DNA of 60,630 nucleotides, taken from positions 434,001 to 494,630 of the forward strand of contig JASANG010002067.1 in NCBI GenBank assembly GCA_030248215.1, in the 5' to 3' direction. This DNA comes from Enoplolaimus lenunculus (taxonomy: Eukaryota). Positions 12,801-60,630 of this stretch are shown in pieces. Numbering within the stretch: position 1 is the stretch's first letter; each line of letters starts with the position of its first letter. The notes beneath the pieces were generated by a model. The model searched no databases. It was not told the origin of the DNA and worked only from the letters and a program-made list of their open reading frames with translations. The position numbers and the translations under genes were made by a program.

Positions 12801-15800
12801 CCGAACTAGTTCATACAATGCGTCTACTTACTTGTTTTGCCCATATGATTTGACCAGAAACAGGCGGTATATCGCGACTTTGGCTCATGCTGCTGGCTTT
12901 GCTTTGATTAAATTGTACCTACAATAACAAACACATTTTAGGGTTGTATCAATTCAACATTACACAAAAATTTTTGTTCAGTAATAATCCTTTGTTATAA
13001 AAAATATAACATATTCAGTGATTAGTGATCCTACGACAGCGTCACTTTTCTCATGCTCAAGCTGGCTTGAGACCTTTTCCAATGGTTGCTCACTGAATTG
13101 ATGTTCAAACTTTCATGCACATTTGAAAACCAAAAATTTCTGCTTTACAAACCTTAAACTGTTCATGCAGCGCTTCGATGCCTTCTTTAACACGTTGAAT
13201 TAGTTGTGTTTGATACTCGCGAATTGCACCTCGTATATGCGGCCGCACAAACAATGCGTTGAAACGTGAAAATATTCGAAACATTTCGTTGGCATTTTTC
13301 GCTTTACCCAATTGATCACGCAATCGCGCTGTGATTCTAGCTTCCACACGATCAATTCTTTCTTCATATCTAAATCAATTACTTTCAGTATTCCATTTAT
13401 TTTTTCGAGACACAAGATCAATCCAGTTTCGCTACATCCTCAAAGGCTTAACTTTAATCTACATTTTTGCAAAAATAGTTAAATACGCTAAATCATCCTG
13501 CGACATGACGAAACTCGGTTTTAATGTGCCTTACATCAATGTTGATTTCGGTTTCTCAAACAGAGTTCCACAGGAAAAAGTAAATCAAACTTGCAATTTT
13601 TGACATAAAACACGAACCTTTGAAAATTTTTTCAATAGGACACTTATATATCTATCTATCTATATACAGCTACAACACGTCATTACGCGTTTTCGACTCT
13701 ATAGCAGTTGATCTTATATACTTAGTTATAAATAGACGATTCTGCATATTTGTGTACACATTGTTATATCTGAAGATTTTTAGTAGCATTGCGACATTTT
13801 TGCGGAAAATATGTTGACGTCGGTTAATAGTATTGCAACCACGTTGACGAGTTTATTATATTACAAGTCTTGCTGGCGTATTGCAGCCAAAATAATAATA
13901 CAAACAAACCGTCGCAAAGCCGCTTCCCATGCATCGTTTCCTTCTTTTGACAAATCCAAACAGTCAACTTCCTTGACGTTGTCATACGCAATGTTCACTT
14001 CCTAAATCACAAACATAAAGAAGTTACTATGGTAAGCAGAAGGTACGGAAAAATAAGCGACAGATATTCAGTCACAGTAAATCTACACAATGAAATGGGT
14101 TACGGAACGCCTAACCATAAAATCTATTTACTTTAGACAATGTCTAATTAAAATAGCATACTTAGCTAGCTAAATAGTAAACGTGTTTATAGCAACCACT
14201 CTATATTGTCATATTGTCCCTGACCTCAATTGCATTCGCATCTGCAGCATCAAGCGTCCACTGCACATCAGTTATTCCTGCTGCGCCATGCTCGGCTTCG
14301 TCTGGTGTAGTTGCTGTGGCACCCGTTGGCCGTACTACCGCAGTAGGGCGCAATACGCGCACAATCACTGTTCGTAACTGCTCGTGTTGTCGACGATACC
14401 TAAATAGACAAACAAAATTCAAAACCATAGCTGGAGTTTCCAGCACCTCAACATCATTAGTTATGATCTGAACGAAACTAATGACGCAGGAATCAATTGA
14501 AATAACATAACTCTTTAACTTGCTGTATTTGTTGAAACAACAAACAGCACTAATGCATCACAGCAGTGTTTACAATTTACTATACACAGACCAGATGAAT
14601 GTAAACAATCGCAATACATTAATCAAGAAACAGTTTTGACATTTTACTTGTACTATATTTTCGAATAAAACCATGCTTAACTTATTATATGAAAACACAG
14701 TTCAGTAACATCCTCTGGTCCTGATCCAACTTACTTTTGCATTTGCTCGAGTCGTGCTTGCAATTTTTTGTGCGCTGCGTTAATGCGGCAAACCATTTTC
14801 AATTGTTCGTCACGTTTTTTCTTAATCAAATCACGCAGTAAACCAATTAGTTTTTCGTTTTCGTCGTCCCACGTTGAAAACACTTCTGAACAGCCATCGG
14901 TAATTCGTTCAAACTCATCGTACGGCATATGCATCAGCCGTTGCGAACTCAAAACCTAAAAAGCAATCGAATGGGTTGAGTGGCGCTCCAACTCCAATTT
15001 GTAACACACGTTGCGCACATATGAAAATGAACTTAATTAGGATTAATACGACCGTCAGTGCAAAAATTAATGAAAACATTAATTGGTGATCAACTCTGCA
15101 TATAAAGCTCATTAACTTTGCTTGCGTTGTGCAATTTTATTTACTTGCTTACTTCCACACCCCCATACCTAAGCTAAAGCGTAAACCAAAACCTAGGTCA
15201 TCCATGTCATAATGTAGTACGTATGATAATCACTTTGAGGAAACCTGAGGCTTTGTTAATACAGTTATAGTGTTGAATGGAGTAAACAAGTACCCAATAG
15301 ACCAACCAAATCCCGAGACTTGCCAAGACCGAGTCTGAGACCGCCCATCCCTGCTTATTACCACATCCATGTGAAGGACTTCACAACCACAACCATAAAA
15401 CTCAACAAGACACTCAAGGTGTAACCTCAAACTCTGTAATAAAGCCTTCCGCAAGTATTAGCTAGTTTTTCTAGGTATTTTTAACGAATAACAAAGTAAA
15501 ATTGTTACTCTTAGTGAAAATTGCACTTTTGTTTCACGCGTCAAGGCAAATTTTGCTTCAACCGGTTACACGCAACAAAATATTTTTCTTACATTAATTA
15601 AAATACACAATTGTTTAACTATACACCTCGAAAAGCTACGGAACTACCTTTAACAGCTGTGTTTGCAAATCACGAGAAATAGCTTCAACCAGTCGCAAGG
15701 CTCGAGTAATCGGATATCGTGTATTGCGTATTTTTCGCATATGCGTAAATATTGCTGCCAGCGCTGCACGAATCCGATCTAATTCAGTTGCAGCCAGCAA

Positions 15801-22294: not shown

Positions 22295-22400
22295 TATCGA
22301 TTTGTCACCTCTTTGGTCTCGGTTTGAAAACCACTGAGACTGAAAAAAGCGAGACCGAGACCAGCCAAATTCCGAGACTTGCCGAGACCGCCCATCTCTG
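22295..22400. repeat. End of a second dispersed MITE-like family (...GAGACC...CCCATCTCTG)
   Basis: Related termini at about 15313-15353 and 41380-41423. Confidence 0.45.
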
Positions 22401-22482
22401 CAATGCACATTGTTCAGTATGCTTGCCGGCAGCATACAGTCGACACTCGGCATATAGTCCACGATACAAACAGTTGGAGGCG

Positions 22483-24389: not shown

Positions 24390-26346
24390 CCTTAATCAGC
24401 CCAACGGTCTACATATGTAGACAACACAACTAGCGTTAGTTTTGGCTTATCTCAGGGTGCTCTCCTCCTTTAACTGGCTTGAGACAGTCAGAACTAGTGT
24501 TCTGGCGGAGTTCCACCCGCTCCCCGTCCAGCCTCCCACTGCGGGCGCGTTGTCCAGTTAAGCACAGTCGTTGCACGTTATGGTGCGATTCATGTGGTCC
24601 TTGCACACTCGTTTTCCACATGACGAACAGCTCAATCTCGTAGATTTGCGACAACTTGTGACCTGACATTTGGTCGGTTTACCAGATGTAGAAGGTTCGT
24701 TTCGCTTTTGAGGCAGCCCGTAAGCCATAAATGAATCCTTTGATTTTGCGTAAATTTTTTCACTACTGTAACGTTTGGTCATATGGTCTTGCGCTAGTTG
24801 TTCGGCTACTTTTTTCATGAAAACATTGCGTGAATTTTGATATCCGTTCAGTTTCATGACAATGAATGCGTTGTGCAACGCAATATCAATCATATTGAAA
24901 ACGCAGACTAGAGGATAACGATTCGTTTTGCGTTTGCAGGTAAAATCATCAATGCAAGAGTCCATTACATCAACCCCGCCTTTTCCCAAATTATAATCCA
25001 AGATAACTGCTGGTTTTTTGTCCTCTCTGCTGGTGCAAACTTCGTTTTTCACATGAACTGAACTTAGTAATAGCACATTTTTATTTTTCTTTGGACAATA
25101 AGACGCCAACATTATGCGGTTATTGTGGTCCCATAAAAATCGGGTGCTATAGACCTCTTGTTCTTTTGTTGACTTTAGCACCGGAGGTACGCTGCGGCGA
25201 TTTGCCATTATTGTGCCTGTGCACGTTAGCCCACTTTGTAATAGGTCCACAGCCAATTCATGGGATGTGAAATAGCGGTCCATGAAAATGTTTCGCTGAG
25301 TGATTCGGACGGTATATAATGAAGACGTAAGTTGGACTGAAATAGGTCCCAAACATCTCGTATAGCAGCCATTTTGTCACTTTTTTGACGCTCCCGGCGA
25401 GTCAGTTTGTTGTCGAATGTTACATTTTTCAGCAACTGTTTCATTCTGTTTTTTGACAGCGCGCAGCGGTAAAAGGGCCTGCTGTCGTTTTTGGTGAATA
25501 GTGAAGCCACTGGAGACATGTTATCGCGATCTGCACCAGCTCTGATTACCACCCCAAGCCAAGCTTTCAGCTCGCACATTGGTAGCGTCGAAAAATTGCG
25601 CGCCCGCAGTCGCCTACTAGTGAGTCGCTAAATTGTATGTAAAATGGGCTCGTTTATATAGTGATAAAATGCTTGTGACTCTGTTGTAGGGTTTACTGCA
25701 GTGCCTTCGCGAAAGCGAATTATATTTCTAGCTAACACACGGACAGGCGGTGTTGTAGAATGCCACTCAACACCCGTCGCTGACAAAAACACATTACTTC
25801 CACTAGAAGTCTCGTCCATATCGCTCAACTCACTACTAGATGCGTCCGATTGTTTTTGTAATTCACCATCACTATCTTGCTCATAAATAGCAGCCTCTTC
25901 ACTACTGCATTGACCTAACTCAACTGATTCTGAGTCGTCATTTGAACTATTGTCGTCCGGTTTGTCATCTTCTGTCTCTGAATCACTTGGTTCTAATACA
26001 CGTCGTACGACCTCAGTCAAAGATAATTTATGCAAACCTGACATTTCCCTGACTTTACCTCACCATACAAAACCGTGTGTAAGAACAAAACGTTCCAATT
26101 CTTGTCAAAACTCAAACTATGATCAAATCAACATCTGTCTACATATGTAGACGGTCGGGTTATATAGGTATATGACTCACTGTACAGCAAACTTTTGTTC
26201 CCACAATGCTATAAGTTTTTTATACTACTATAACAGAATAATTATCGATGGAAATTAAACAATAGATTCTTAACTATAGCACCTGCCGAACAATCAATTG
26301 TCGAACTGGTTATGTCTACATATGTAGACTGTCGGGCCATTGAGGG
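24390..26346 (-). mobile_element. Defective piggyBac DNA transposon
   Basis: Right end ...TGAGGG|TTAA (26347-26350). The left end is a degenerate TIR CCTTAATCAGCCCAACGGTCTACATATGTAGACA preceded by TTCA. Both TIRs share the palindrome GTCTACATATGTAGAC, and they enclose a transposase. Confidence 0.9.
24558..26044 (-). pseudogene. piggyBac transposase pseudogene
   Basis: Acidic N-terminus; ELKAWLG, DKMAAIRDVWD, NIFMDRYFTS (second catalytic Asp motif), YNLGKGGVDVMD (third Asp) and a C-terminal Cys-rich domain. Disabled by an in-frame TAG at 25628-25630 and a frameshifting deletion near 25295 that removes the first catalytic Asp segment. Confidence 0.9.
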
Positions 26347-41180: not shown

Positions 41181-42056
41181 TATGAAGCCGACGGTGACCG
41201 GACAGATGGCAACCGCACAAAAGTCCGTCTGGACAAAAGCCGTCTGGGCAAAAGGCCGACCGGATAAAAGGCCCACCGGAGAAAAGACCATCCGGATAAA
41301 AGGCCGTCCAGACAAAAGGACGACCGGACCTAGACTTCTGGTTTCGGCTCCAAATCACCGATACTCAAAAAAGCAAGCCCGAGACCTGTGAAATACAGTG
41401 ACTTACCGAGACTCCCATCTCTGTACATAGAAATTTTAACTATCAAAACTGATAACTGTTGTGTGATCTGCAGTAAAAAATGTTTTCTGGTGATTTTTAG
41501 GGGATGAAGAGTTTGTGAATGATCAAAACGTCAAAACAACCTGCATGATTAGATTTTAGTTATAACATTAAATAAAAAAACAAAAAATGGAAACAAATGC
41601 TCGCTATTTTATTGCAAGGTTTATATTGCTTATTCAAATCGCTCAACCTCCATTTAGCGTGTCGTTGTTCGCCTATGGTTTAATTCAATTTTGCCAGGCA
41701 GCCTGTGTACAGGCGGATTGTGTCCAAACGACTTTTTTGCGGATAGCCTTTTATCCGGACGGCCTTTTATCCGGACGTCCTTTCGTCCAGGCGACCTTTT
41801 GTCCATGCGGCCTTTTGTACCGACAGAATTTTTTCCGGACGGCCTTTTGTCCAGGCGGCCTTTTGTCCGGACGACTTTTGCCCAGGCGGCCTTTCGTCTG
41901 GACGGTCTTTTGTCCAGGCGGGTTTTCGTTCCGACGGCCTTTTGTCGAGACGGCGTTTTGTCCGACGGCCTTTTGTCTGGACGGTGTTTTGTCCGGACAG
42001 TCTTTGGTCCGGCGACCATCTGTCCGGCGGTCATTTGTCCGGCGGCCTTCAGTATA
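41181..42056. mobile_element. Foldback-like element with arms made of about 16-bp tandem repeats
   Basis: GGACAAAAGGCCGTCC-like units at about 41185-41330 and their reverse complement GGACGGCCTTTTGTCC at about 41715-42050, around a unique AT-rich spacer. Confidence 0.65.
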
Positions 42057-44606: not shown

Positions 44607-45631
44607 TCATCCTTTCTTGAAGTTTTTATGTACGCCAGGCTTTATATCACACACTAGTTGTAAGAGTGTTTGTATCACCTGCAAGCACAATAAAACAAAA
44701 GTTTTTCATTGCTGCAAAGCACAGCAGCGGGCAACACAAACCATTACAGCGAAGCTAAGGGAAACTCTATGGTCACAACATCGTACATGTTTTCAATACA
44801 CAAAAACAGGTAAACACAAACCTAGAAGGTTCGATCCAAGTTGAGGTGAAATGTACACAAAAACTTTTAGACCAAAAATTGTTTATTACAATCATTAAAT
44901 GTTGTTTTTCGTAAATATGATTCCTGATGACAAGTTACAGATACATAAAAAGGAATGCTAACCTTGTCTTTGTTTTGATCGGTTAGTCGCTTCATTTTTT
45001 CTAATTCCGCTTGTGTTGACTGGTCTATTCGCAACTGCACATCATCTCGTGAGCCAAGGTGCTCTGCTTCAAATGTTTTAAACTGTCGCTCTCGTTCCTA
45101 AAATAAAGCGTAATCGATAGAACAATAAGTGTTGAAGTTATTATACCTAGAAAAGACTCAATACCCGAGTGCGCGTGCAATGGATTGTGAACATGTCGCT
45201 ACAATTACCTTTCGGTGGCTGACCATTTTAAAGTTTATTTAATTTTGCAAAATACTGGCGACTGGTAAAACAATTTTTGCATCCTGTCAAAAAACAAAAA
45301 TGCCAATTCAATGTAGAACGTCACTTGGAATTTACTAAAACTTTTAATCAGCTTCTGTGCGCTCTGACAACACCTTACGTTTTCACTAACATGCATAAAG
45401 TAATAAAAAATCCGTTAATCCACGAAACAATGACAATAATACGTATTATAAATATATAACACTTACAGATGAAAAAACTATTACCTGTCTGTAGCGTTCT
45501 ATTTCCTGCTGTGCCTCCTCCTTCGCTTGCTTTAACCGTTTTGCTTTCCGTTTACGCGCTTCGTTTATTTTTTCCGCAGCACGTTTTTCGGCAGACAATA
45601 ACTGTTGAATTCCCGCGGTTTGACTTGCCAT
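44607..45631 (-). CDS. vha-10: V-type proton ATPase subunit G, 117 aa
   Basis: Exons 45485-45631, 44963-45097, 44607-44678, all phase 0 and [45 protein letters not shown]...HLGSRDDV...[13 protein letters not shown] is typical of ATP6V1G. Confidence 0.96.
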
Positions 45632-47945: not shown

Positions 47946-49119
47946 GCGCGTGGGGTGGGACTCAGCGTGCATTCCGTGTCGCACTGGTGCCCACACTCGG
48001 CATCTCTTAACCTCCTAGCTATGTCGCTTCCTTGGCGTGCAACTTGTCCGTCTCAGTCTATCTTTCTAGATTGTGATCTATATATTCGTTGCCACATTAT
48101 TCCTGCCCCTATTGCTTCTTTATATGCCAATACCACTGTGCTTTACAACTTTCTGCCAAATAAGTTAAAGTTTACCTTATTTCCGGTCATTATGCTTTCA
48201 GAATCTCAAACCCCACTTTCTTACCTAATTCTAAAATGCCATATTTCCTGTGATCTTTCATATGCTCATTTCCATGTTTTCAGGAGTGCCATTCCCATTT
48301 CTAACTAATTTCCGGGTGCTCATTCCATTTCGCACCTTATTTTCTGTCAATCCTCATTCCATTTCGCACTTTATTTTCTGCCAATCCTCATTCCATTCAT
48401 TCTATTTGACATATCTCTGCTTGTCATTATTATGATCATAATCCTTGAGTTTCTGCTAGTTTTCGGGACGCTTAGCTAGTATTTTGAGAGAATTTGATCA
48501 TGCACGTGTATGGGTATTATTTCTATTGTATACATTGGGAATAGTGTTTTCGCGCATTCGTAACAAAATGATCTTATTAGTATCGGTATCACCATAAGTC
48601 AAAGACTATAAATCATAAATTTGGAATCTGCGCAATATATGTGTCATTTTATGGTTTGTTGTAATTTATAGATTTGCGGACCGTTACCGAGTTTGAACAC
48701 CAGTCGCGTCAGCTGTACTTGATAGATCTTTGCCAAATTTGGCGTAATTGTCCGTTTACATTGGACTTTCCGTATATGTATACTTTCCGATCACACGGAC
48801 CCTCGCTCGAAAGTTATCCACGGTAAAAGTCATAAATAACGCATAAGAACGCAATACGCTACGTACTAACGGACCTCAGTTCGAATTACTTGTCCTGTAT
48901 TTGTATTGCTCACCAATAAAACGTCTCTCGCTTTTAGGTCAATTTTTCGAGTAATTTTTTTGAGTTTTCCGGCTAAATATAGTTATATAACTTAGCTAGC
49001 TTGTTGGAGCGCATTCGGACACTACGGAAGGTTGTATTTTAACGGATTTTGTTGGCATTGTACGTGTCAGGTTATGTTGAAACCTGGACTTCAGATCTTT
49101 GTACTAAGCATCTGGAAAA

Positions 49120-49552
49120 GCGGGCCTCCAGAGCGGGGATCGAACTCACAGCCTACAGATCTTAAAGCGAATACTTTACCACTGCGCCACGCAGCCCGCC
49201 TCTCCAACTACCATTTTTGTCGACTATATGTGTCGATCGTATGCTGTCAGCAAGCACTCAACGCAATGTGCATTGCATTTATTGCATATGCACTAGGACA
49301 AATATATCTCGCATGCTTACATGCCCTTATTTTCAAAAAGGTCGTCCCTTGACCCCTTGAATGTACAGCCTATAGCCCGCCTCTCCAACTACCATTTTCG
49401 TCGACTACATGTGTCGGTCGTATGCTGCCAGCAAGCACTCAACACAATGTGCATTACATATATTGCATATGCACTAGGACAAACATGTTTCACATGCTTA
49501 CATGCCCTTACTTTCAACAAGGTCGTCCCTTGATCCCTTGGATGTACAGCCT
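49120..49552 (-). repeat. tRNA-like unit (49125-49197) with two tandem 181-bp upstream units; same family as 22396-22560
   Basis: The minus strand reads GGCTGCGTGGCGCAGTGGTAA...GAGTTCGATCC. Tandem units start at 49194 and 49375, and their reverse complement matches the sequence upstream of the tRNA-Val-like unit at 22483. Confidence 0.75.
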
Positions 49553-50261
49553 TGTAGGTGGTATCTCACCTTTGAATTCTGGGTTTTTACTTTTTATTTT
49601 CTAAATTACCCTCCCTCAGCTTTCCCTTTTTCTGGAGCGCCCTGGGCTCCTATTTAGCACTCTTTTTCCTATTTCTGAGCTGTGACCCCGCTGGCCAATA
49701 TCCGAGTGCGACTCTTAAGTCGTGCCGGATATTTTCCTAAAAACTTATAAAAATCTATTTTAAAAATCTAAAACAATTACCTAGCTAGGTTTGGTACGTG
49801 GTTTTTAGGGTGTTTTTAGTTGTTGTCTTTTGTTTTGTTTTTGAGTGTTTATTGCTTTGCATCCGGAAGTTGATAGTGGTTATTTTTTAAAAGTTGCGCG
49901 CACAAGAAGTAATAGTTTTCAAAGCTATTGTTTTAGAGCTAAAAATAATTCTGTAATTGTTTTACCAAATAATTCTGTGCCTTAATACGGTGCTTTATCT
50001 TATAATTTTACTTGTTACATTTACTTTGTCATTTAACTTTTATATAAATTTTCCAAACCCGTGCGTTTTCTGCGGAGCGATTGATCTTAGTTGAAGTACG
50101 GACTCATTTGCTGTTGGACCCCAAAGTTTATTTGACGCGGTGTCGAACACAATAGCTAGCTACCCGGATCACACAGAAAAGAACAGAATCAGGACACACA
50201 ACCGGATAAAGAAACACACACAACCAACCGAAACCCAAAACCGACATGGTGACCACGATGG
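49553..50261 (+). promoter_or_regulatory. Candidate 5' LTR (49553-50246) and primer-binding site (50247-50261)
   Basis: TGTAGG...CCGACA termini are inverted at 5 of 6 positions; TATAAAAA near 49746; followed directly by TGGTGACCACGATGG, which resembles the complement of a tRNA-Arg 3' end. It cannot be confirmed without the 3' LTR. Confidence 0.35.
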
Positions 50262-50416
50262 CTTCAATTCTGGCGTGATCAATTGTGACGCTAGATTCGA
50301 ACGGAAAAGGATAAAGGATAAAGGTGACAAAGACTAAAGCATAAAGTCGAGATTGTAAGTGTGCAGAATTTTATTGTCCCCCAGTTTTCAGAAATACCCA
50401 GCCTAGTATATTCGTC

Positions 50417-53400
50417 ATGTATCGGACCCCGCAACATCCTCGAGTTCCGCCATTCCCCCAGTATCATGGACATCCTGACAGCCTCCCGAATCAGATGGTT
50501 ACCAGGAATGCCTTACGACAGTACCAGAATGCACTACAAACTCAACAACATTCCCCGTCCCGAGTTACGATCCGAACTGCGTCTCCCCAGAACTCAACCC
50601 TATTGACGAGTCCTCAAGGAATTATGGAACCATCACCGGATATACACATTTCAGCACCCGTTACCCCGTTCCAAGAACCTGTAGCCACAAACACACTTAA
50701 TTTTGTAGGTGATCAGGAGAGTGCAGATCCGAACACAAGTAATGTAGCATCAGATACACAAAATCCGCTAGCTACAAAAAGCATAACTATAGATACAGAC
50801 CCGTATGTTTTAGTACCAGTAAAAACAAATTCTTTGCCCTCAAATGTTGCAACAGTAGTAACATGTATGACAGCAAATATGCAACAGTTAGCAATAACAA
50901 CTGAAGGACAGCAGCATTTGTATAATCAGAGTAACATAGCTAATATGCCACAGTTAAATACAAATGTAACACAGATAGGAACACCGGCTGGACAAATTGT
51001 CCATCCGATAGTACCCACATTAGCATACCCATATTCCTCAGCAATTTCAGGTACACATAATTATTCAGGCTATAATGTAGTCGCTTTTCCTAGTGTACCT
51101 CAAACAGTTGTGCAACCGACATGTAGTTATGCACAAAATATTTCGCAAACTCCTAACAGAGTTAATGTGCAATATTATCCCCAAAATTCGAGAAATATTG
51201 TACAACCCGTAAACGGTGTTTTGAATCCTAATACTGGATGTATTAATCCTGATATGTTAAATGCTCCTATACCTGAAACGGTACCTAAAACTTCTGCATT
51301 TCACCCTATAAGCCCTTCAGTTCATGAAAATCCTTCCGTAGTTGCAAATGTAGAAGTCAATGCACCTATAAACATGAATTCAGCTCATGGTAAGACACCT
51401 GAACAACAACTTTTATTAACATTAAATCCACAACAATTATTATTATATCAACAAACATTAATGAAAAAAGCAGATAGTTGGAATCCCCAAGATGATCCCC
51501 CAGAAGCACGAAGTCCGGAATTATTTAAGGAAACGGTTAAAACTTGGATGTTTCCGAAAAGACAAGAAAGCTGTTCGTCAACATCAATCCCGAATGCCCA
51601 ACCTAAACGGAATCACAGGAAAGATTTTTCTCCTAGTGATTCATCCGATAGAGGAAGTCGAAGTATTATTGTTGAAAGGACCAAATTAAGGGACACTCCA
51701 ACCCAAATAATAGTTAAGATGCCGGAAAAACCCCCTACTGTACCATCATACGATGGCGAATCTGATTTCGGCACGTATTTCCGCAAATTTAGTCGAACTA
51801 TGAAGTCGGCTAAAATTTCGGACAATGAGACAAAAATGAAAATATTTCGGTCAAGCCTTAAAAAATCCGCAGAAAAATATCTTGATTTTCTGGAGGATAA
51901 AAGGCACGACGCTTTTGAACCAGAAGAATTTGTTGCACTAATAGATTTATTTCATAAAAGGTTCGCGGAAACCACAGACCTGTCAAGTCGCATGGCTACT
52001 TTCCAGCGAATTGTTCAGGAGGGATCTGTGGAAGATTTTGCCGACGAATTACATGCTTATTGGGTTCGAAATTTAGAACCTCAATTTGCAAATACTTTCG
52101 AGGCAAGGGAACTTTTGTGCCAAACTTTTGTTAACAATTCAGTCCATGAGTTAAAATGGAGATTACAATTAGGTGTAACGGAGCCTTTCGATTTTGAAGT
52201 ACTCAGTAACAGGGCTGAAAAGCTACAACGACAGTTAATAGCGGATGGCACATTAACGAAAGTTAAGAGTAGTCTATCAAATAATAATAATAAGTCTGAC
52301 GGCAAGTTACAAACTCGGACGGAATCTAATTCCGCTAGAGTTCTTAGGCAACATTAGTCCAATGCGAGTCAATCGAATGTAGTTCCCAGAAACCAAACAC
52401 AGAACACCCTAAATTTAAATACTAATAACCAGAAATCTTTTCAAAATAATACCGGAAATGCCCAGAGATTACAAGCACTTAGAGACAGTGGCTCTTGTTT
52501 CTTTTGTGAACAACAAGGTCACATGTCTAGAAATTGTCCTAATAAGTCCCAAGGACAGAATCCAACAACGGGTATGGCTTCAAAGCCACTACCGTTAATT
52601 ACTTTACAGCGGGAAGAAAGCATGATTCAAATGAGTCAGGACCCAGATGTTATGCCCTGTGCATTCTGTGGTCGTACTAATCATTTGGTACAAGAGTGTT
52701 ACTTGAATCCTAAGAATAAGGTTAACACACAAATCCTTAAAATACCCCAAGCCCCACAACAAAATAAGACCACATCTGCACCACAAAATAATCAGAATAA
52801 CAATAAACCAGGTCCAAATACTGCCGCAATGGTTGCAAAACCCATGGATAATTACCCAGTGAACGATTCCTTGGCCAATAACCTATCGGGTATCCGTATC
52901 CGTAGAATGCATGAAGAAACTCCTGGTCCTATTTCAATTCAGCACAACCCTAAAATGATTGCCACCATTAATCCCAAGTCCGTCAAAGCTACCGGTGTAA
53001 ATATTGAAGTCAACTTATGTTCCTTAATGGTTACGGCAATGGTTGATACAGGAGCGGAAGTTTCGTTAATACATTCTGAAGTTTACCGGATGTTTTTCAA
53101 AGACAAAATACCCCTGGATACCTCCCAAAATGTGGTTTGCCGGACATTTGATAATTTGTCGTCTCAAACCAGCGAAGGATGTATAAATTACAGTTTAACA
53201 ATCGGAGACTGTACGAAAATGGTTGCACTGCATGTAATACCTCGAATGCAGGCTGCAATAATTTTGGGCGATGATGTACTAACGGATTTCGGTGTTGTCA
53301 AAAATTATTTCAACTCAACCGTTAGTGTTAACCGGAAAATAATTTGGCCTAGAGAAACTACGCTGGAATATATCGAGAACAAATTACCGGAACGTTTGGG

Positions 53401-53773
53401 ATACAATCTCATTCAGAAACCAGTTGTCGAAACCTTAGGTGAAAAGGTTGAAAGGGCACGCTTATCTGGAAAACATCTTAGTCCACCGGTTCGTCGGAAA
53501 CCTATGGGAATATGTTCAGGAGATGACGAAAATTGCAAGGATTTTGAAAATAAACCTATGGAACCTAAAGGTCCATTAGGTATCAAAATGGCAACACATT
53601 CAAGATGTTCGGACGTAAATTGTAAAAATCAATTGCCGCCGTCATTCCAATATCAAGGAGAAACAAAAAGGGGTACGTTAAAAGTTGCATTGTCAGAAAA
53701 CGACACTGACTTAGATCAGCGTCGAAGGGGGATTCTAAGCATGAATATACCCAGACGTGTGATCAAGATATAA
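50417..53773 (+). CDS. gag: Gag-protease, interrupted by one in-frame TAG at 52355-52357
   Basis: Long Q/P/N/T-rich N-terminus; capsid-like region (PSYDGESDFGTYFRKF...QEGSVEDFADEL); two CCHC knuckles, CFFCEQQGHMSRNC and CAFCGRTNHLVQEC; aspartic protease MVDTGAEVS...IILGDD. Confidence 0.88.
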
Positions 53774-53775
53774 CA

Positions 53776-54228
53776 TTGGCAACAATACAAAGCCCAAATA
53801 TGCGAATTGTAAACATTTGCCGAGTAGCAACGTCAGTACGAATACCGCCTAATACTACTAAATTAGTGCGATGTTGTTTACCAGATGAATTAAAGCATCA
53901 AGAAGCAGTGGTAACTGAACCAAAAGGCGTTGCAAACAAATTGTCTGAGTCCATTTTGGTTCCAAATACAATTGCGCGAACTCAAGAAGGCTGCGTTTAT
54001 CTTCCAGTTTCCAACTTTGATGCTCGGCCTGTTGCGCTGCTTAAAGGAGAAGATATTGCAAGTGTCGATACGGGTGAAGTTATTACGAACATCTTTGACC
54101 CCAAAGACTTACCGGAAACATTGGACAGTAACGAAAATAAACGGAGGGAAGATTTAACAACAAATGTTAACGCTTCCCAAATAATACAGTTAAGATTACG
54201 AAGCAACTTAAACAAGCACAGGATTTGA
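53776..54228 (+). CDS. Frameshifted PR-RT spacer segment, beta-rich and loosely dUTPase-like
   Basis: VRIPPNTTKLV...EPKG...VPNTIA...GCVYLPVSNFDARPVALLKGEDIASV, bounded by two -1 frame changes. Confidence 0.55.
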   Translation: MATIQSPNMRIVNICRVATSVRIPPNTTKLVRCCLPDELKHQEAVVTEPKGVANKLSESILVPNTIARTQEGCVYLPVSNFDARPVALLKGEDIASVDTGEVITNIFDPKDLPETLDSNENKRREDLTTNVNASQIIQLRLRSNLNKHRI

Positions 54229-57200
54229 AACAATTCTGTGATTGGTTATTGCAGCAAACTTCCCATTTACCAGAAATTCCCCTCCCTGAAGGTGAAAAGT
54301 TAGCGGAAGCTAATTTGCAACCACAACAACTACAGCTGTTGAAAGCTTTGATATATATGAATACAGACTGTTTTGGAGCTGAAAAGAAACCTTTAGGAGC
54401 TACGGGAGTGGTAAAACACAAAATAGAGGTCCAAACCCGTAACCCTATACAGCAAAAAGCTAGAAGGGCTGCATTTTCTCGACGTCAATTAATAACGGAA
54501 CATATAAACGAAATGTTAGAACAAGGTATAGTTCAGCCTTCAAAAAGTCCCTGGGCTTCCCCTGTTGTACTAGTTAAGAAAAAAGACGGTACTCTACGTT
54601 TTTGCGTCGATTACCGCCAGTTAAATGATGTTACCAAGAAAGATAGTTTCCCTCTCCCACGTATCGACGAAACGATCGACGCGTTAAGAGGATCAAAATA
54701 TTTTACCACAATAGATCTCCAATCAGGATATTGGCAGATTGAAATGGACCCAGAGGATATTGAAAAAACTGCGTTCATTAGCCATGAAGGACTGCATGAA
54801 TTTAAAGTCATGCCGTTTGGATTGACTAATGCCCCCGCTACTTTTCAGCGAATGATGCAAATGGTGTTTTCCGGATTGCTTATGGAAATTTGCCTATGCT
54901 ATCTGGATGACATCATTGTATTTTCAAAATCGTTTATGCAACATTTATTGGACCTAGAGAGAGTTTTTGGAAAATTAAGGGCAGCAGGATTAACAGTTAA
55001 GGGTAAAAAATGTGATTTTGTTAAAACGGAAGTACACTTTTTAGGACACATAGTTTCAAATGGAGGTATAAGGCCCACAAGTGAAAAAGTTCAACAAGTG
55101 AGAGAATGTCGAGTACCGACCACGGTAACAGAACTCCGTTCTTTTTTAGGTTTAACTGGATATTATAGGCAATTTGTACAAGGATACGGCATAATAGCCG
55201 CACCTTTGTATGATTTGGTTCAAGGAAATGAAAAAGGTAGAAATATTAAGGACAGATGGGATGAAAAATGTCAAGCGACATTTGAATTACTTAAGAAAAA
55301 GCTCACAGAATCCCCAATTTTAGGATATCCTGACCATAGTAAACCTTTTATTTTGTCTACTGATGCCAGTGACAGAGGTGTTGGATTTGTTTTAGCACAA
55401 ATTGGCGATGACGGTATGGAACACCCCATCCATTACGGCAGCCGTAAATTTACGCCAGCTGAAAGCCGGTATGCCGTCACGGAAAAAGAATGTTTGGCTG
55501 TGGTAAGTGCTTTTATGAAATTTAGACCCTATCTCCTTGGAAACAGAACCACCGTAATTACCGATCATGCACCTTTAACCCAAATTTTAACCAAAATTCG
55601 ATCCCTGGACGTCTTAACTCCCCGATTAATGCGTTTTGCCCTTAAACTACAAGAATTCGAGTTTGATATAATATACAAACCAGGTAAAAAGCACAACAAC
55701 GCAGATGTCTTATCCCGCCCGCCAATATTAGATGACAATTCTAACGAAATTGGAGCGGAAACTGAACCGATGGAAGAACGGCTACAGTTGCGCGAACAAA
55801 TCTTTTGCAAAGAAAATTCGTTAAATGCGGTAATAGCTCAAGTTATTCCATCCGCTGACGAAGAATTCATTCCATCTCCTCCATCCACTTCCGATAAAGA
55901 ATCCTCCGATGTCGATTGTTTCTCCACCTATTTCGAGATTGAATCTCCATGGGATAAGGAACAATTAGTAAGTGCTCAAATTGAAGATGTATATTTTGGC
56001 CCTATGATTAAATATTTAGAGGGTGAAAATATTTTAGAAAGTCAATCTCCGGAAATAAAGAAATGGGTTATGGAAAATGAAAATAATTTTGTAATTTACA
56101 AGGAGGTTTTGTATCGCGCACCACGCCGATCAAAACCTGTAAAATCGGATGCATTGGAATTTAGATTAGCAGTACCTATATTATTTAGAACTCCTCTAAT
56201 GGAGCAAGCCCATACTTCTAAGTATGGCGGTCATTTATCGTTTGATAGGGTTTTAGGAAAATTGCAAAGGAAATTCTATTGGCCTACAATGGTCAAAGAT
56301 TTGCAAAGCTTCATAGATAAGTGTATTCCCTGTACCAGATTTAAACCTGGTCCTGTACGTAAAGGTAAATTGGAACCTATCGCAGCCGTCTCTCCTTTCC
56401 ACATGATTGGAGTAGATGTTATAGGTCCATTACCAGAATCGGAAATCGGAAATAAGTATATAGTGTGTTTTATGGATTATTTCACTAAGTGGCCCGAAGC
56501 GTTTGCAACGTCTAATCAGACGGCACAAACAATAATACAACTTATAACTGATAAGATTATCCCCGCACATGGTGTTCCCCGTGTTATTCTATCAGATCAA
56601 GGACCAGCATTTGTATCTGAACTATATAAGATGGAAATGGCTCAATTAGGAATTAGACTTACGTATTCAACGCCTTATCATCACCAGGCCAATGGCCTAA
56701 TAGAGCGTTGGAATCAAACCCTTATGAAAATATTGAAACCCTTAATTGAATTAGAACCTAGAAAATGGGATACATATTTAGCACCCGCCCTTTTTGCATA
56801 TAGAACCACTGTTCATGCGTCAACTGGACAAACACCATTCTTTTTGATGCATGGCAGGGATCCTGATCTCCCGGGTGAAAATGCTTTAATGTCAACCTTA
56901 AAGGCAACAGAACCGGCAGGTTATAGTGCTCGGCTGCTGCAAGATTTATCACAGGCATGGGAAAATACTGCAAAACAAATTTTGCATTCCCAAACCAAAT
57001 ACAAGTCCTATTATGATAAAAGGGCTAAAGTAAGGGAATTTTTACCTGGTGATATTGTGGTTATGAAGAGAAAAGATAAAATAGATCCTAAGAGAATTTC
57101 TAACAAATTTCATTCCGAATTTGAAAGATTATACCGGGTAAAAGCGGTTGACGGACCTAATTTAAAATTACAATACCTAGGATCGGCAACACGAGCCGAC

Positions 57201-57302
57201 TCTTGGTATAATCAGGCTTTAGTTAAACATTTTGGAGGCTCTATTGAAGATTATTTAGCATATGAAACAAAATTAAGGGCCGGAATTTCAAATAAGGAAT
57301 AA
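54225..57302 (+). CDS. pol: Pol: reverse transcriptase, RNase H and integrase
   Basis: SPWASPVVLVKKKDG, RFCVDYR, DLQSGYWQI, MPFGLTNAPATFQ, YLDD; RNase H TDAS...EKECLA...TDH; integrase HHCC zinc motif (AH...GGH...CIPC) and DDE triad (GVD, SDQG, IERWN). Confidence 0.97.
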   Translation: MKQFCDWLLQQTSHLPEIPLPEGEKLAEANLQPQQLQLLKALIYMNTDCFGAEKKPLGATGVVKHKIEVQTRNPIQQKARRAAFSRRQLITEHINEMLEQGIVQPSKSPWASPVVLVKKKDGTLRFCVDYRQLNDVTKKDSFPLPRIDETIDALRGSKYFTTIDLQSGYWQIEMDPEDIEKTAFISHEGLHEFKVMPFGLTNAPATFQRMMQMVFSGLLMEICLCYLDDIIVFSKSFMQHLLDLERVFGKLRAAGLTVKGKKCDFVKTEVHFLGHIVSNGGIRPTSEKVQQVRECRVPTTVTELRSFLGLTGYYRQFVQGYGIIAAPLYDLVQGNEKGRNIKDRWDEKCQATFELLKKKLTESPILGYPDHSKPFILSTDASDRGVGFVLAQIGDDGMEHPIHYGSRKFTPAESRYAVTEKECLAVVSAFMKFRPYLLGNRTTVITDHAPLTQILTKIRSLDVLTPRLMRFALKLQEFEFDIIYKPGKKHNNADVLSRPPILDDNSNEIGAETEPMEERLQLREQIFCKENSLNAVIAQVIPSADEEFIPSPPSTSDKESSDVDCFSTYFEIESPWDKEQLVSAQIEDVYFGPMIKYLEGENILESQSPEIKKWVMENENNFVIYKEVLYRAPRRSKPVKSDALEFRLAVPILFRTPLMEQAHTSKYGGHLSFDRVLGKLQRKFYWPTMVKDLQSFIDKCIPCTRFKPGPVRKGKLEPIAAVSPFHMIGVDVIGPLPESEIGNKYIVCFMDYFTKWPEAFATSNQTAQTIIQLITDKIIPAHGVPRVILSDQGPAFVSELYKMEMAQLGIRLTYSTPYHHQANGLIERWNQTLMKILKPLIELEPRKWDTYLAPALFAYRTTVHASTGQTPFFLMHGRDPDLPGENALMSTLKATEPAGYSARLLQDLSQAWENTAKQILHSQTKYKSYYDKRAKVREFLPGDIVVMKRKDKIDPKRISNKFHSEFERLYRVKAVDGPNLKLQYLGSATRADSWYNQALVKHFGGSIEDYLAYETKLRAGISNKE

Positions 57303-57491
57303 GAAGATGCGGATTGTCAAATTTGCAAGGGTTCTTATTCTACTGATTTACAAACGGATTTGGTTATAGATTGGATTCAATGTGACTTATGCCTATCATG
57401 GTTTCATTTTACCTGTGTTGGTCTTATAGACGAACCAGCACAAGCCTTATGGTATTGTCCCCAGTGTTTACAAGCCCAAGGTAGCTTATGA
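57303..57491 (+). CDS. PHD finger (C4HC3) in frame with integrase, directly after a TAA; absent from the ORF track
   Basis: Translation: EDADCQICKGSYSTDLQTDLVIDWIQCDLCLSWFHFTCVGLIDEPAQALWYCPQCLQAQGSL*. All eight zinc ligands and the WIQCD, WFH and WYCP signatures are present. Confidence 0.92.
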   Translation, partial: EDADCQICKGSYSTDLQTDLVIDWIQCDLCLSWFHFTCVGLIDEPAQALWYCPQCLQAQGSL

Positions 57492-57521
57492 CTACATACG
57501 GGCTTTGTAATTGTTATAGAT

Positions 57522-58916
57522 GTGAGTATTAAAAAAGTAAAAAATTCTTTAAAAGAATTTAGTAACTATTATATAGTATTAGTGGTGTTGTGCGTAGTTT
57601 GGTTATTTTCAAAAGGTGTTATTTCAAATAGCGACGATATATTGTATGGTAAAGAGTTATTCATCGAGTGCACGATGCCAGCAACAAATTCAAAGGTGCA
57701 ATGGCCGGAGATTTTTGAAAAGCCGCCGGTTGGATCCCCAATGTATGATGCAAATCACCCGTGTCATTCCTTGGAGTATTGGGTTCCAGTACAAACGTTG
57801 ATGCGCGAATGGGGAAAGCCACGGTATGTTGGGATTTTATCAGATGAGGATCAGGTAGATGCGGCGGTAGAAATAATAAGAGCTTCAAGAACTAATATTT
57901 TAGCGTTAGATATTGAAGGAGTAAATTTTTCAAGACAAAAATACAAAACTTATATGAAAATGTTAGAAAAACACCAGGAAAATCCCAAAGAAAATCCTCA
58001 CCCTTCTAATACTAACCTTCTCCCCGACGGCCACCAAACTTATTGCCTAGAAGAATGGTGTTCTAAACCAACGGTAGTTCGTAAAAATTTAATGCGAACA
58101 CTACAAATAGGAACAACAGAAGGGGCAATTTTTATTTTTGATGTTCAGGCTTTTGGAGTAGAGATACCTAAGTCTCTATCCGAATTATTGCACGATGAAA
58201 ATTTTGTAAAATTATGGTGGAGCGTGCATAATGATAGAAATATGTGGGAAATGTTGTATGGCGATTCGAAAAACGCACCTCCAAATAAGAAATTTCCCTA
58301 CGATTCAAATACCCTAGATTTACAAAATTGCCATAAACATGCATATGGTCAAGCGGGACTAGGAGATGTCATAACCGCTTATTTTGGATACAATAAAGGA
58401 AAAACTCCATACGGTGAATACATGATGGGATATCTCCGTCAATGGACAAAAGGTCCACAGACGGTTGATACAGATGACACACGATTTATGGAGTTTATTA
58501 GGTATGCCAGTTTAGACGTCATGCTAGCTGATGTAGCTGTAGCCATGATTTGTCGGGACCCTGAAAAGATTGCAAAACGAAATTTATCGGATATTCCATT
58601 CCAACTCTTTAAGGCAATCGAAGTATTCGGAAAAGTCCACAATAGGGATATAAAAGTTAACATAATGCCAGGAGCAAACACAAAAGCTGCTTGGGAAAAT
58701 TATGCTATAACGGAAGCAACAAATTTGTGGACAATCGAATATTCATTTCAGGCAAGTCAAAAGGTAAAGGTCCCTCGTAGGAGGGCCATTTTTCAGTTAT
58801 TTCAGGACACGAATCCAATTCCAATAGATACAACAATACCCGAAGTCAAGATGAGAATGGAATTGGTGTGGCCCAGTATCGAAAGAATCCGGAGGGAAGA
58901 CGCGTTACGGGACTAA
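57522..58916 (+). CDS. Accessory ORF: DEDDy 3'-5' exonuclease domain (DNA_pol_A_exo1; WRN/EXD/MUT-7-like)
   Basis: ExoI ILALDIEG (Asp at 57909, Glu at 57915); LQIGT...IFIFDV; LSELLHDENFVK; ExoII VHNDR (Asp at 58233); LDLQ; GLGDVITAYFG; ExoIII IRYASLDV (Tyr at 58503, Asp at 58515). The true start is uncertain. Confidence 0.85.
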   Translation: MSIKKVKNSLKEFSNYYIVLVVLCVVWLFSKGVISNSDDILYGKELFIECTMPATNSKVQWPEIFEKPPVGSPMYDANHPCHSLEYWVPVQTLMREWGKPRYVGILSDEDQVDAAVEIIRASRTNILALDIEGVNFSRQKYKTYMKMLEKHQENPKENPHPSNTNLLPDGHQTYCLEEWCSKPTVVRKNLMRTLQIGTTEGAIFIFDVQAFGVEIPKSLSELLHDENFVKLWWSVHNDRNMWEMLYGDSKNAPPNKKFPYDSNTLDLQNCHKHAYGQAGLGDVITAYFGYNKGKTPYGEYMMGYLRQWTKGPQTVDTDDTRFMEFIRYASLDVMLADVAVAMICRDPEKIAKRNLSDIPFQLFKAIEVFGKVHNRDIKVNIMPGANTKAAWENYAITEATNLWTIEYSFQASQKVKVPRRRAIFQLFQDTNPIPIDTTIPEVKMRMELVWPSIERIRREDALRD

Positions 58917-60630
58917 AAAATCAAGGAAAGAGATGTGATCAATGACCCAGTGCATCATTGGCCACAATGGGCAAGGCAATGTGTCAGATGGGATGGTTTC
59001 AGAAAGCAACAAAAAGATGACCAGAAACCTAAAAAGAAATCAAAAGGTAAAAGTAAAGTTAAACAAGGTATTTTAGATTCCGAAGACGAAGAAGTCATAT
59101 TAGGATTTCCGGAATGGGCCGACCCGGAAAGACCCATAACAGGTGAAATTAGTGACGAAATGTTTGGTCCGGAAACAGAGGAAAGGAAAAAGGCTATGGA
59201 GGAACATAGAATAGCAACTGAATGGTTTAGTCAATTTATGACTGTTAAACCATCAGGACCAGGACAGAGTGGAATCGAAATCCAGGAGGCAGTGGCAGAT
59301 GAGCCACCACCTCCACCCCCAAAAAGGACCAAAACCGTACAGACCAAAAACATTAGAGGAAGTAGTTGGTATGAAACCACCCCAACCTCAGGAAATTTCA
59401 GCAATTCCGTTACCCCCAAAAGGACCAAAACCGTATAGACCAAAAACATTAGAAGAAGTAGTTGGTATGAAACCACCCCAACCTCAGGAAATTTCAGCAA
59501 TTCCGTTACCCCCGAAAGAACAACCCCAAAAAGAAACTGTGCCTAAAGAGGTGGCAAAAGCGCCAACTCTTTCAGAGGAACAGATAAGGCTTGCAAGGCA
59601 AGATACAGTTCCGTTGTTTCAACAAATGGATACTACGGAATCACCTCAAGAAACACCAATTACGGATGTTAACAGTGATTTGACAAATAGGTTAGCTGTC
59701 CAGTCAATGGAAGTTGAGAAATTTTCTGAAGAACCGACTACAATAAGTCGTACTTCAGAACCGGTTTCAGGAGTAAGTTCATACCCAAGCCCTGTTGAAA
59801 CAATTTCTCCCAGTGCAAGACTGGAGGACACAACAATCACGGAAATCGAACAGGATGTTTTCCAACAGGTGCCTTCGGAATATGAAATATTACAGATAAG
59901 TAAGAAATTTAATACATCTATTTTAGGCGAACAAGAAAAATTATCAGTTATACAACCATCGCCCGGTGTCTCCTATACACCCAAAACAACTAGTAGATTT
60001 ACAGTACCAGAGGGAGCGACGTGGATGAGTTTTATTCCATATCCTCCAGGAATCGATACCACCCGTGAACTAACGCCCCCAGGTGGATCTGTAACAATTA
60101 CGGATTTAATTAAAAATAGGATCGAGGAAATACAAAAGAAGGAATTAAAAGCAATGGCGGAAGTACAATCCGCTATGGAAAAATTTGTTCCAGAAGGCGG
60201 ATTCCCATACTACCAAATTGAACAACGGTATATTGTACTTCAGGCGGCTATTAAAAGCTTGAATGGAGTAATATTACAAAGGAATAATTTGGACCGAGAG
60301 GCAAAGGAAGCAATGTTAAAGCTTCATTATTATCAGGAATATGTCAGTATGGTGGATGATACTATTGAACAAGCAAAGTCCACCCTTCAGGCAGCTTCCA
60401 TACATACTGATTGGATGAAGGAAAACGATGAAAAATTGAGGCAGGAATATATTAAAAAATTTGCAATTCAGGAAGTTCGAATCTGCAAATTAGAACAGGA
60501 AAAGGTAAGTACTGAAAAAGTTCTAACAAAGGCAATGCAAAATTCTGTTAGAGATCATACAGAATTACTAAATTTATTGGATGATAAACGAAAATTGGAA
60601 AAGAGAATTTTGCAATTAGAAAGAAAATTA
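58917..60630 (+). CDS. Continuation of the accessory ORF: charged and Pro-rich linker, then coiled coil; open to the window end
   Basis: Same frame as the exonuclease after TAA at 58914-58916. One extra A at 59321-59325 shifts into a frame that is open from about 59323 to 60630 and ends in heptad-like sequence (ELLNLLDDKRKLEKRILQLERKL). Confidence 0.75.
59315..59518 (+). repeat. 96-bp coding tandem repeat, two copies (PKGPKPYRPKTLEEVVGMKPPQPQEISAIPLP)
   Basis: ggaccaaaaccgta starts at 59326 and at 59422. Confidence 0.9.

Follow-up and report, generated by a model that had tools for sequence, protein, structure and literature searches.

The window, the whole 60,630-bp stretch of Enoplolaimus lenunculus DNA analysed here, carried a Ty3/Gypsy element whose pol ended in a PHD finger fused to the C-terminus of the integrase. 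This integrase-PHD fusion is real and conserved in the family, with very little room left for doubt. The PHD finger contained two tryptophans that were invariant among relatives, and it probably binds methylated H3K4. A role of this binding in guiding integration toward active chromatin is proposed more tentatively.

The element and its integrase-PHD junction

The element lay on the plus strand and filled the last 11 kb of the window. Its features, and those of one host gene, were as follows.

44960–45631, minus strand: host V-ATPase subunit G gene, first two coding exons (PF03179, E 3.4e-8)
49681–50246, plus strand: probable 5' LTR, beginning TGT and ending ACA (from its termini and the primer-site-like motif behind it)
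50247–50262, plus strand: primer-binding-site-like motif, starting TGG (sequence motif)
50345–53773, plus strand: gag, broken by a stop at 52355–52357 (open frames and Pfam)
about 52493–52543, plus strand: zinc knuckle of gag
about 53009–53293, plus strand: aspartyl protease
53710–54228, plus strand: protease-RT linker in a shifted frame, with frame breaks near 53712 and 54181
54171–57299, plus strand: pol with RT, RNase H and integrase (H2C2, rve core, SH3-like C-terminal domain; Pfam RVT_1, RT_RNaseH, Integrase_H2C2, rve)
57300–57302, plus strand: in-frame stop TAA in the acidic integrase-PHD linker, private to the window copy
57303–57491, plus strand: PHD finger, the C-terminal domain of pol, ending at TGA 57489–57491 (Pfam PF00628)
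57492–57674, plus strand: non-coding spacer, open in frame in the window copy, with frame-shifting indels in other copies
57675–58916, plus strand: ORF3, likely a DEDDy 3'-5' exonuclease (motifs; weak Pfam PF01612)
58917–60630, plus strand: further open stretches, 58917–59438 and 59242 to the window end (no Pfam match)

The Pfam scan showed that the gene order (gag, then protease, RT, RNase H and integrase) was that of Ty3/Gypsy LTR retrotransposons. In pol and its tail the scan returned a PHD instead of a chromodomain, so the element is not a chromovirus by the defining domain. The RT and RNase H were in frame with the integrase, which sets the element apart from the Ginger1 DNA transposons. 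The left end was uncertain, at 49681 or at an alternative TGT at 49554, and no second LTR was found within the window, which ends inside ORF3. The 3' LTR therefore lies beyond the window. The TGG motif at 50247–50262 resembles an Arg-tRNA primer site; no tRNA gene for comparison was present in the window.

The integrase frame (54171–57299) ended with SNKE at the TAA of 57300–57302, and beyond this stop the same frame read EDADC into a 62-codon PHD finger closed by TGA at 57489–57491. An earlier note on this DNA had described a complete C4HC3 PHD finger in frame behind the integrase and its TAA, and the ligands were all found: C5, C8, C27, C30, H35, C38, C52 and C55 (57315–57467). W33 was located two residues ahead of the zinc ligand H35; the cage tryptophans W24 and W33 are encoded at 57372 and 57399. 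The domain matched Pfam PF00628 at 38.6 bits (cut-off 24; E 1.1e-9). A six-frame search of the window gave the C4HC3 pattern once, and none of 40 shuffles contained it. The structural model of the integrase tail had a mean pLDDT of 80, with 88–94 over the PHD (residues 201–250), and the rmsd to solved PHDs was 2.3–3.6 Å. Pfam match, ligands, pLDDT and rmsd agreed in identifying a PHD finger, both by its C4HC3 ligands and by its fold.

Other copies of the family were investigated in contigs from three public DNA runs containing the stretch. These runs came from two samples of one study and were not independent of each other, nor possibly of the window sequence, and their contigs drop rare variants. 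Summed over the element, contig depth ranged from roughly 50 to 1700; this suits a repeated family and is not a copy number. In each run a single contig crossed 57300–57302 (depth 123, 316 and 146), and all three read a sense codon there, in the comparison with other copies that the note had called for; the stop was in none of the contigs of the three runs. Because the contigs read a sense codon at this site, the TAA is not a feature of the family: either it is a mutation private to the window copy, or it reflects an assembly error. The sense codon differed from the TAA at two positions, so the contigs do not bear out an origin of the stop from GAA or CAA by one substitution, as the note had suggested. 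The ancestral fusion proposed in the note was borne out by the open contigs in the three runs and by the 30 of 151 relatives that had both domains in one frame.

The stop was located exactly in the linker, and this is the sole point in favour of a programmed read-through or splice point that would give integrase with and without the PHD. Such programming is hardly credible: the stop appeared in no contig of any run, the relatives were open at the junction, and the window copy had several other private breaks. Read-through at 57300–57302 was rejected on the sense codon of the crossing contigs. The 40 differences listed, out of about 800 across the element, included the gag stop (52355–52357), where the entire contig depth differed from the window in the three runs. 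One-base indels were found in contigs at 54181 (three of three runs) and 53712 (two of three), and at 59321 in some contigs of two of the three runs. The window copy is a decayed member of a multi-copy Ty3/Gypsy family.

Around the end of the PHD, where all but two of the differences were listed, none of those listed fell on the TGA at 57489–57491, which several contigs covered, and six were indels at 57528–57670, within 180 bases behind it. The TGA was thus kept while the spacer carried indels; pol therefore truly ends with the PHD, behind which lies a non-coding spacer. Extension of pol beyond 57491, through the following open stretch, was ruled out by the TGA in the covering contigs and by the frame-shifting nature of the spacer indels. 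Within the PHD (57303–57488), six of the seven listed differences among family copies were synonymous, against 19–29% expected (P 0.0003–0.003), in a small sample from few contigs.

The contigs also contained shortened forms. In runs X1 and X2, contigs skipped 5.8 kb by joining 53993 to 59830, at depths of 86 and 194, respectively, and in run X3 the joint was 3 bases away (depth 60). The skip removes RT, integrase, PHD and exonuclease and is likely an amplified non-autonomous derivative. One contig of run X1 had a 29-base loose end before 57496 that resembled the LTR start (49683–49711), hinting at another internally deleted form.

Behind the spacer, an ATG at 57675 opened the 413-codon frame of ORF3. 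The motifs LDIEG (57906), HND (58227) and YASLD (58503) presumably represent the DEDDy pattern (ExoI D-x-E, ExoII D and ExoIII Y-x3-D). ORF3 matched Pfam PF01612 weakly (E 0.18) and Egalitarian weakly (E 0.37); the Atlas linked it to PF01612 clusters, with scores reaching 0.93 and 165 features in common. No sequence homologues of ORF3 were found in searches at near or longer lengths, and its single-sequence model (pLDDT 33) was unusable. On this modest support, ORF3 is likely a DEDDy 3'-5' exonuclease. The distal open stretches were helical with a coiled-coil-like end, and 57675–60630 is possibly one long ORF3 broken in the window copy. A 96-base tandem duplication (97% identical) was present at 59317–59508 in the distal region.

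Elsewhere in the window, a multi-exon host dynein heavy chain gene occupied 1–21000 on the minus strand (DHC_N1 match at 13105–13374); together with the V-ATPase G gene it marks the host as an animal. A broken piggyBac-like transposase with a cysteine-rich tail lay at 24558–26059, also on the minus strand (PF13843, E 6e-22). At 41198–42043 there were two inverted arrays of a 16-base repeat about 400 bases apart, foldback- or MITE-like. Just left of the element, a repeat at 49000–49552 had a summed contig depth of 14,000–67,000 and a 181-base duplication, and it was related to 22394–22446. Interstitial repeats of the TTAGGC type, the nematode telomere motif, were found between 11387 and 36554; the window had 13 matches where 0.23 would be expected, an enrichment that points to a nematode host.

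PHD-bearing relatives

A word-indexed search returned the protein P0001, which shared 46% identity over the whole pol and was open across the integrase-PHD junction; its residues 1584–1722, after the integrase-PHD, formed a NADAR domain (PF08719, E 2.4e-22). HMMER was run with the integrase tail plus PHD as the query, the break being read as X, and gave 7788 matches at E<=0.001. The best 150 of these were analysed together with P0001. Among the 151 proteins, 30 combined integrase tail and PHD within a single chain, 117 had the integrase only and 4 had the PHD only, proportions to be read with the fact that a query containing the PHD enriches for it. Both domains were present in 12 of the 12 matches at E<=1e-30 and in 25 of the best 29. 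P0158, which clusters with P0010, was an uninterrupted gag-pol of 2461 aa ending in a PHD.

DNA surrounding the relatives was sought in two further collections. The alignment query recovered none from metagenome contigs (0 of 167 candidates), and viral contigs gave none either (0 of 75 candidates). A metagenome scan with P0001 yielded nine loci from 46 candidates, eight with RT or integrase only (28–44%) and one with PHD only; an integrase joined to a PHD was in none of the nine.

A tree was constructed by a quick method from the integrase tail alone with 140 rows, after ten short rows were dropped and with two rows absent that had no integrase match. PHD labels were carried by 29 rows, three of which (P0035, P0048 and P0134) were set by hand, their PHD score being just under or below the threshold. 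On this tree 28 of the 29 PHD-labelled rows came together in a single group of 37 with weak support (SH-aLRT 84). The window sat among nine rows, all PHD-bearing (support 94), inside a set of 21 rows of which 16 had the PHD and five did not; these five stop within 1 to 55 residues of the integrase match, too early to show whether a PHD belongs to them. The PHD label required 9 changes, compared with 26.6 in shuffles. Such a pattern fits a single old acquisition of the PHD.

The window was aligned with 23 relatives, chosen by hand from the top PHD-bearing matches and sharing 26–56% identity. Six of the eight zinc ligands were invariant in the 23 relatives, and the other two were kept in 20 and 22 of them. 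W219 and W228 (W24 and W33 of the PHD) and W245 were invariant in all 23, while neighbouring columns, and most non-ligand columns of the PHD, varied freely.

These data bear on the reading of the PHD as a captured host fragment carried along as a functionless passenger. Gypsy integrases evidently work without a PHD, for 50 of the 117 integrase-only matches were long enough to hold one yet did not, and to that extent a dispensable passenger is conceivable. However, the ligands and tryptophans were invariant across distant relatives, silent changes were in excess among the family copies, and the PHD-labelled rows clustered on a tree built without the PHD. The conservation data largely refute the passenger reading, which is very improbable.

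The predicted methyl-lysine cage

The PHD contained a Trp two residues before the His and a second cage residue three before the third Cys. Among solved structures, its central strands matched KDM5B and the third PHD of KDM5A (PHD3) best, with weak E-values (2e-4 and 3e-4) from a 23-residue query, and W24 and W33 aligned with Trp18 and Trp28 of KDM5A PHD3. The H3K4me3 cage of that domain consists of these two residues and no others, according to the available part of the source (PMC9814790; the papers cited here by identifier were available in part, and statements about them refer to those parts). The prediction that the PHD reads methyl-H3K4 gains support because its invariant two-Trp cage aligns with the KDM5A pair. 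Like KDM5A PHD3 (PDB 2KGI/2KGG), the window PHD had the W-x-x-C and W-x-H placement, a two-Trp cage and no further aromatic (PMC9814790, in part). Two features tell against a clean K4me3 reader: among the 23 relatives no aromatic was conserved ahead of the first Cys, and the Asp after Cys27 was kept in only 17. The acidic linker, too, could suit other states of H3. KDM5A PHD3 differs in being a domain of a host demethylase, and whole-domain scores were higher for the ING, PHF2 and TAF3 PHDs, so that no donor is established.

In the tail model, the pTM was 0.38 and the domains were not placed relative to each other. Fold search showed that the model matched the Ty3 intasome (7q5b) best. The matches to the PHD included the H3K4me3-bound PHDs of PHF2, BPTF, TAF3, AL1 and ING1 at 2.3–2.7 Å, and many H3K4me-bound structures lay at 2.3–3.3 Å; the UHRF1 and Pygo PHDs matched about equally, and the fold search does not separate reader classes.

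Matches to readers of other states, namely UHRF1 and AL3-H3K4me2, are in keeping with a second reading, by which the PHD would be a general nucleosome tether or have another H3 preference (K4me1/2, or unmodified K4 by way of the acidic linker) and would show no promoter bias. It would then raise integration efficiency or keep the complex on chromatin. The acidic residues ahead of the first Cys were partly conserved, with D or E in 15 of the 23 relatives at position 197 and in 13 of 23 at position 195, and this too is consistent with such a tether. The invariance of both cage tryptophans in all 23 relatives argues against it, and this reading is considered somewhat unlikely. Readers of unmodified K4 usually have no Trp two residues before the His, which counts against the unmodified-K4 form of it.

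Binding to a non-histone partner, be it a host factor whose tail resembles that of a histone, or Gag or ORF3 of the element itself, would give the PHD a role in assembly, nuclear entry or escape from silencing and not in site choice. PHDs can bind non-histone peptides, as the PHF2 PHD does with a VRK1 peptide (7m10), and transposon PHDs occur on proteins other than integrase, for example CR1 ORF1 (cited in PMC6673714, available in part). Here, however, the PHD occupied exactly the position of the chromovirus chromatin reader and had a cage of the histone-reader type, and a non-histone partner seems unlikely.

Proposed insertion targeting and known systems

If the PHD reads methyl-H3K4 as predicted, the following mechanism may be proposed. 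The protease would release the integrase with the PHD still attached, as with the chromodomains of chromoviruses. The two tryptophans would hold K4me3/me2, and the acidic linker together with the Asp after Cys27, which was kept in 17 of the 23 relatives, would contact the basic H3 tail. Bound to H3 tails with methylated K4, the PHD could tether the integration complex to active, promoter-type chromatin and so bias insertion toward regions near transcription starts. The full mechanism, in which the fused PHD binds methyl-H3K4 and tethers integration to active chromatin, is judged from sequence to be possible, at slightly less than even chances. Measurable targeting of insertions may likewise exist, at odds that are also a little less than even. 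More speculative is the suggestion, also drawn from sequence, that the family belongs to an old Gypsy clade of 'anti-chromoviruses', whose two-Trp integrase PHD would read H3K4me3 and steer insertion to the flanks of active promoters.

A PHD could steer integration in principle: HIV-1 integration shifted toward transcription starts once an ING2 PHD had been engineered onto the LEDGF tether (reviewed in PMC8149907, in part). Promoter targeting has been described as costly to the host, in an argument for the rarity of bromodomain fusions (10.1101/2021.11.30.470311, in part), and this cost counts against the insertion-steering reading and favours a general tether. The PHD-bearing Gypsy-7a of Chlamydomonas was reported to have intergenic insertions 2.6-fold over expected (PMC9940879, in part), a bias that neither shows nor excludes guidance by H3K4me3. 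As for the window copy itself, the housekeeping gene that the earlier note placed about 4 kb away does exist: it encodes V-ATPase subunit G (PF03179), and some 4 kb separate its start codon (45631) from the probable left terminus of the element, at 49554 or 49681. This distance was discarded as targeting evidence, being a single site with no control.

Chromodomains are the textbook chromatin readers borne by retrotransposons, directing insertion away from genes, and reports of PHD fingers on transposons go back twenty years. The chromoviruses, Ty3/Gypsy elements such as MAGGY with a chromodomain at the integrase C-terminus (Gao et al. 2008, cited in PMC6673714; 10.1101/2021.11.30.470311; both in part), share with the window family the Gypsy pol order and a histone-reader domain that ends the integrase. 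The window family differs in having a PHD with a methyl-K4-type cage instead of a chromodomain, and its predicted target is active chromatin, compared with heterochromatin for chromoviruses.

The transposase of Ginger1-9_HM also has a Gypsy-type integrase followed by C-terminal additions including a PHD (PMC2836005, in part). As described there, Ginger1 moves by cut-and-paste as a DNA transposon; it has terminal inverted repeats, lacks an RT, and its PHD is accompanied by an Ulp1 protease, whereas the window element encodes gag, protease, RT and RNase H. Gypsy-7a_cRei is, like the window element, a Gypsy with gag-pol and a PHD proposed to influence insertion; in this green algal element the PHD is given ahead of the integrase in the accessible part of the source (PMC9940879), and not after it as in the window family.

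Retrotransposon-encoded chromodomains and PHDs are widespread (PMC6673714, in part). In a survey of 172 genomes, most fusions of transposable elements with chromatin domains involved PHD or chromodomains, and the 823 gene models included cnidarian retrotransposon-PHD (PYGO-like) fusions (10.1101/2021.11.30.470311, in part). These are likewise animal retrotransposons with PHD readers linked to H3K4 methylation; the window PHD matched the KDM5A/B PHD3 cage best and not PYGO. The rotifer LTR elements Juno and Vesta resemble the window element in having an extra ORF after pol with DEDDy-type motifs, a likeness to ORF3 by motif type, and no PHD is reported on their integrases in the part of the source available (PMC5408684).

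PHDs on transposons are thus already known, and the form found in the window clade, with a conserved two-Trp cage on the integrase end, is a variant. In the literature searched, with Repbase and most subscription journals outside it, neither a description of this clade nor a binding or targeting test of it was found. The same literature yielded no combination of a PHD with a DEDDy ORF3, and no tests of what transposon PHDs bind or whether they steer insertion.

With a conserved, readable cage and many similar copies, binding and steering are directly testable in the window family. A negative result would mean that such PHD fingers do something else. A positive one would reveal a naturally occurring integrase directed to active chromatin, and this would bear on the mutation load near promoters. 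The family, with its own likely DEDDy nuclease, would then offer a natural case of a retroelement that chooses its target site through a PHD of its own.
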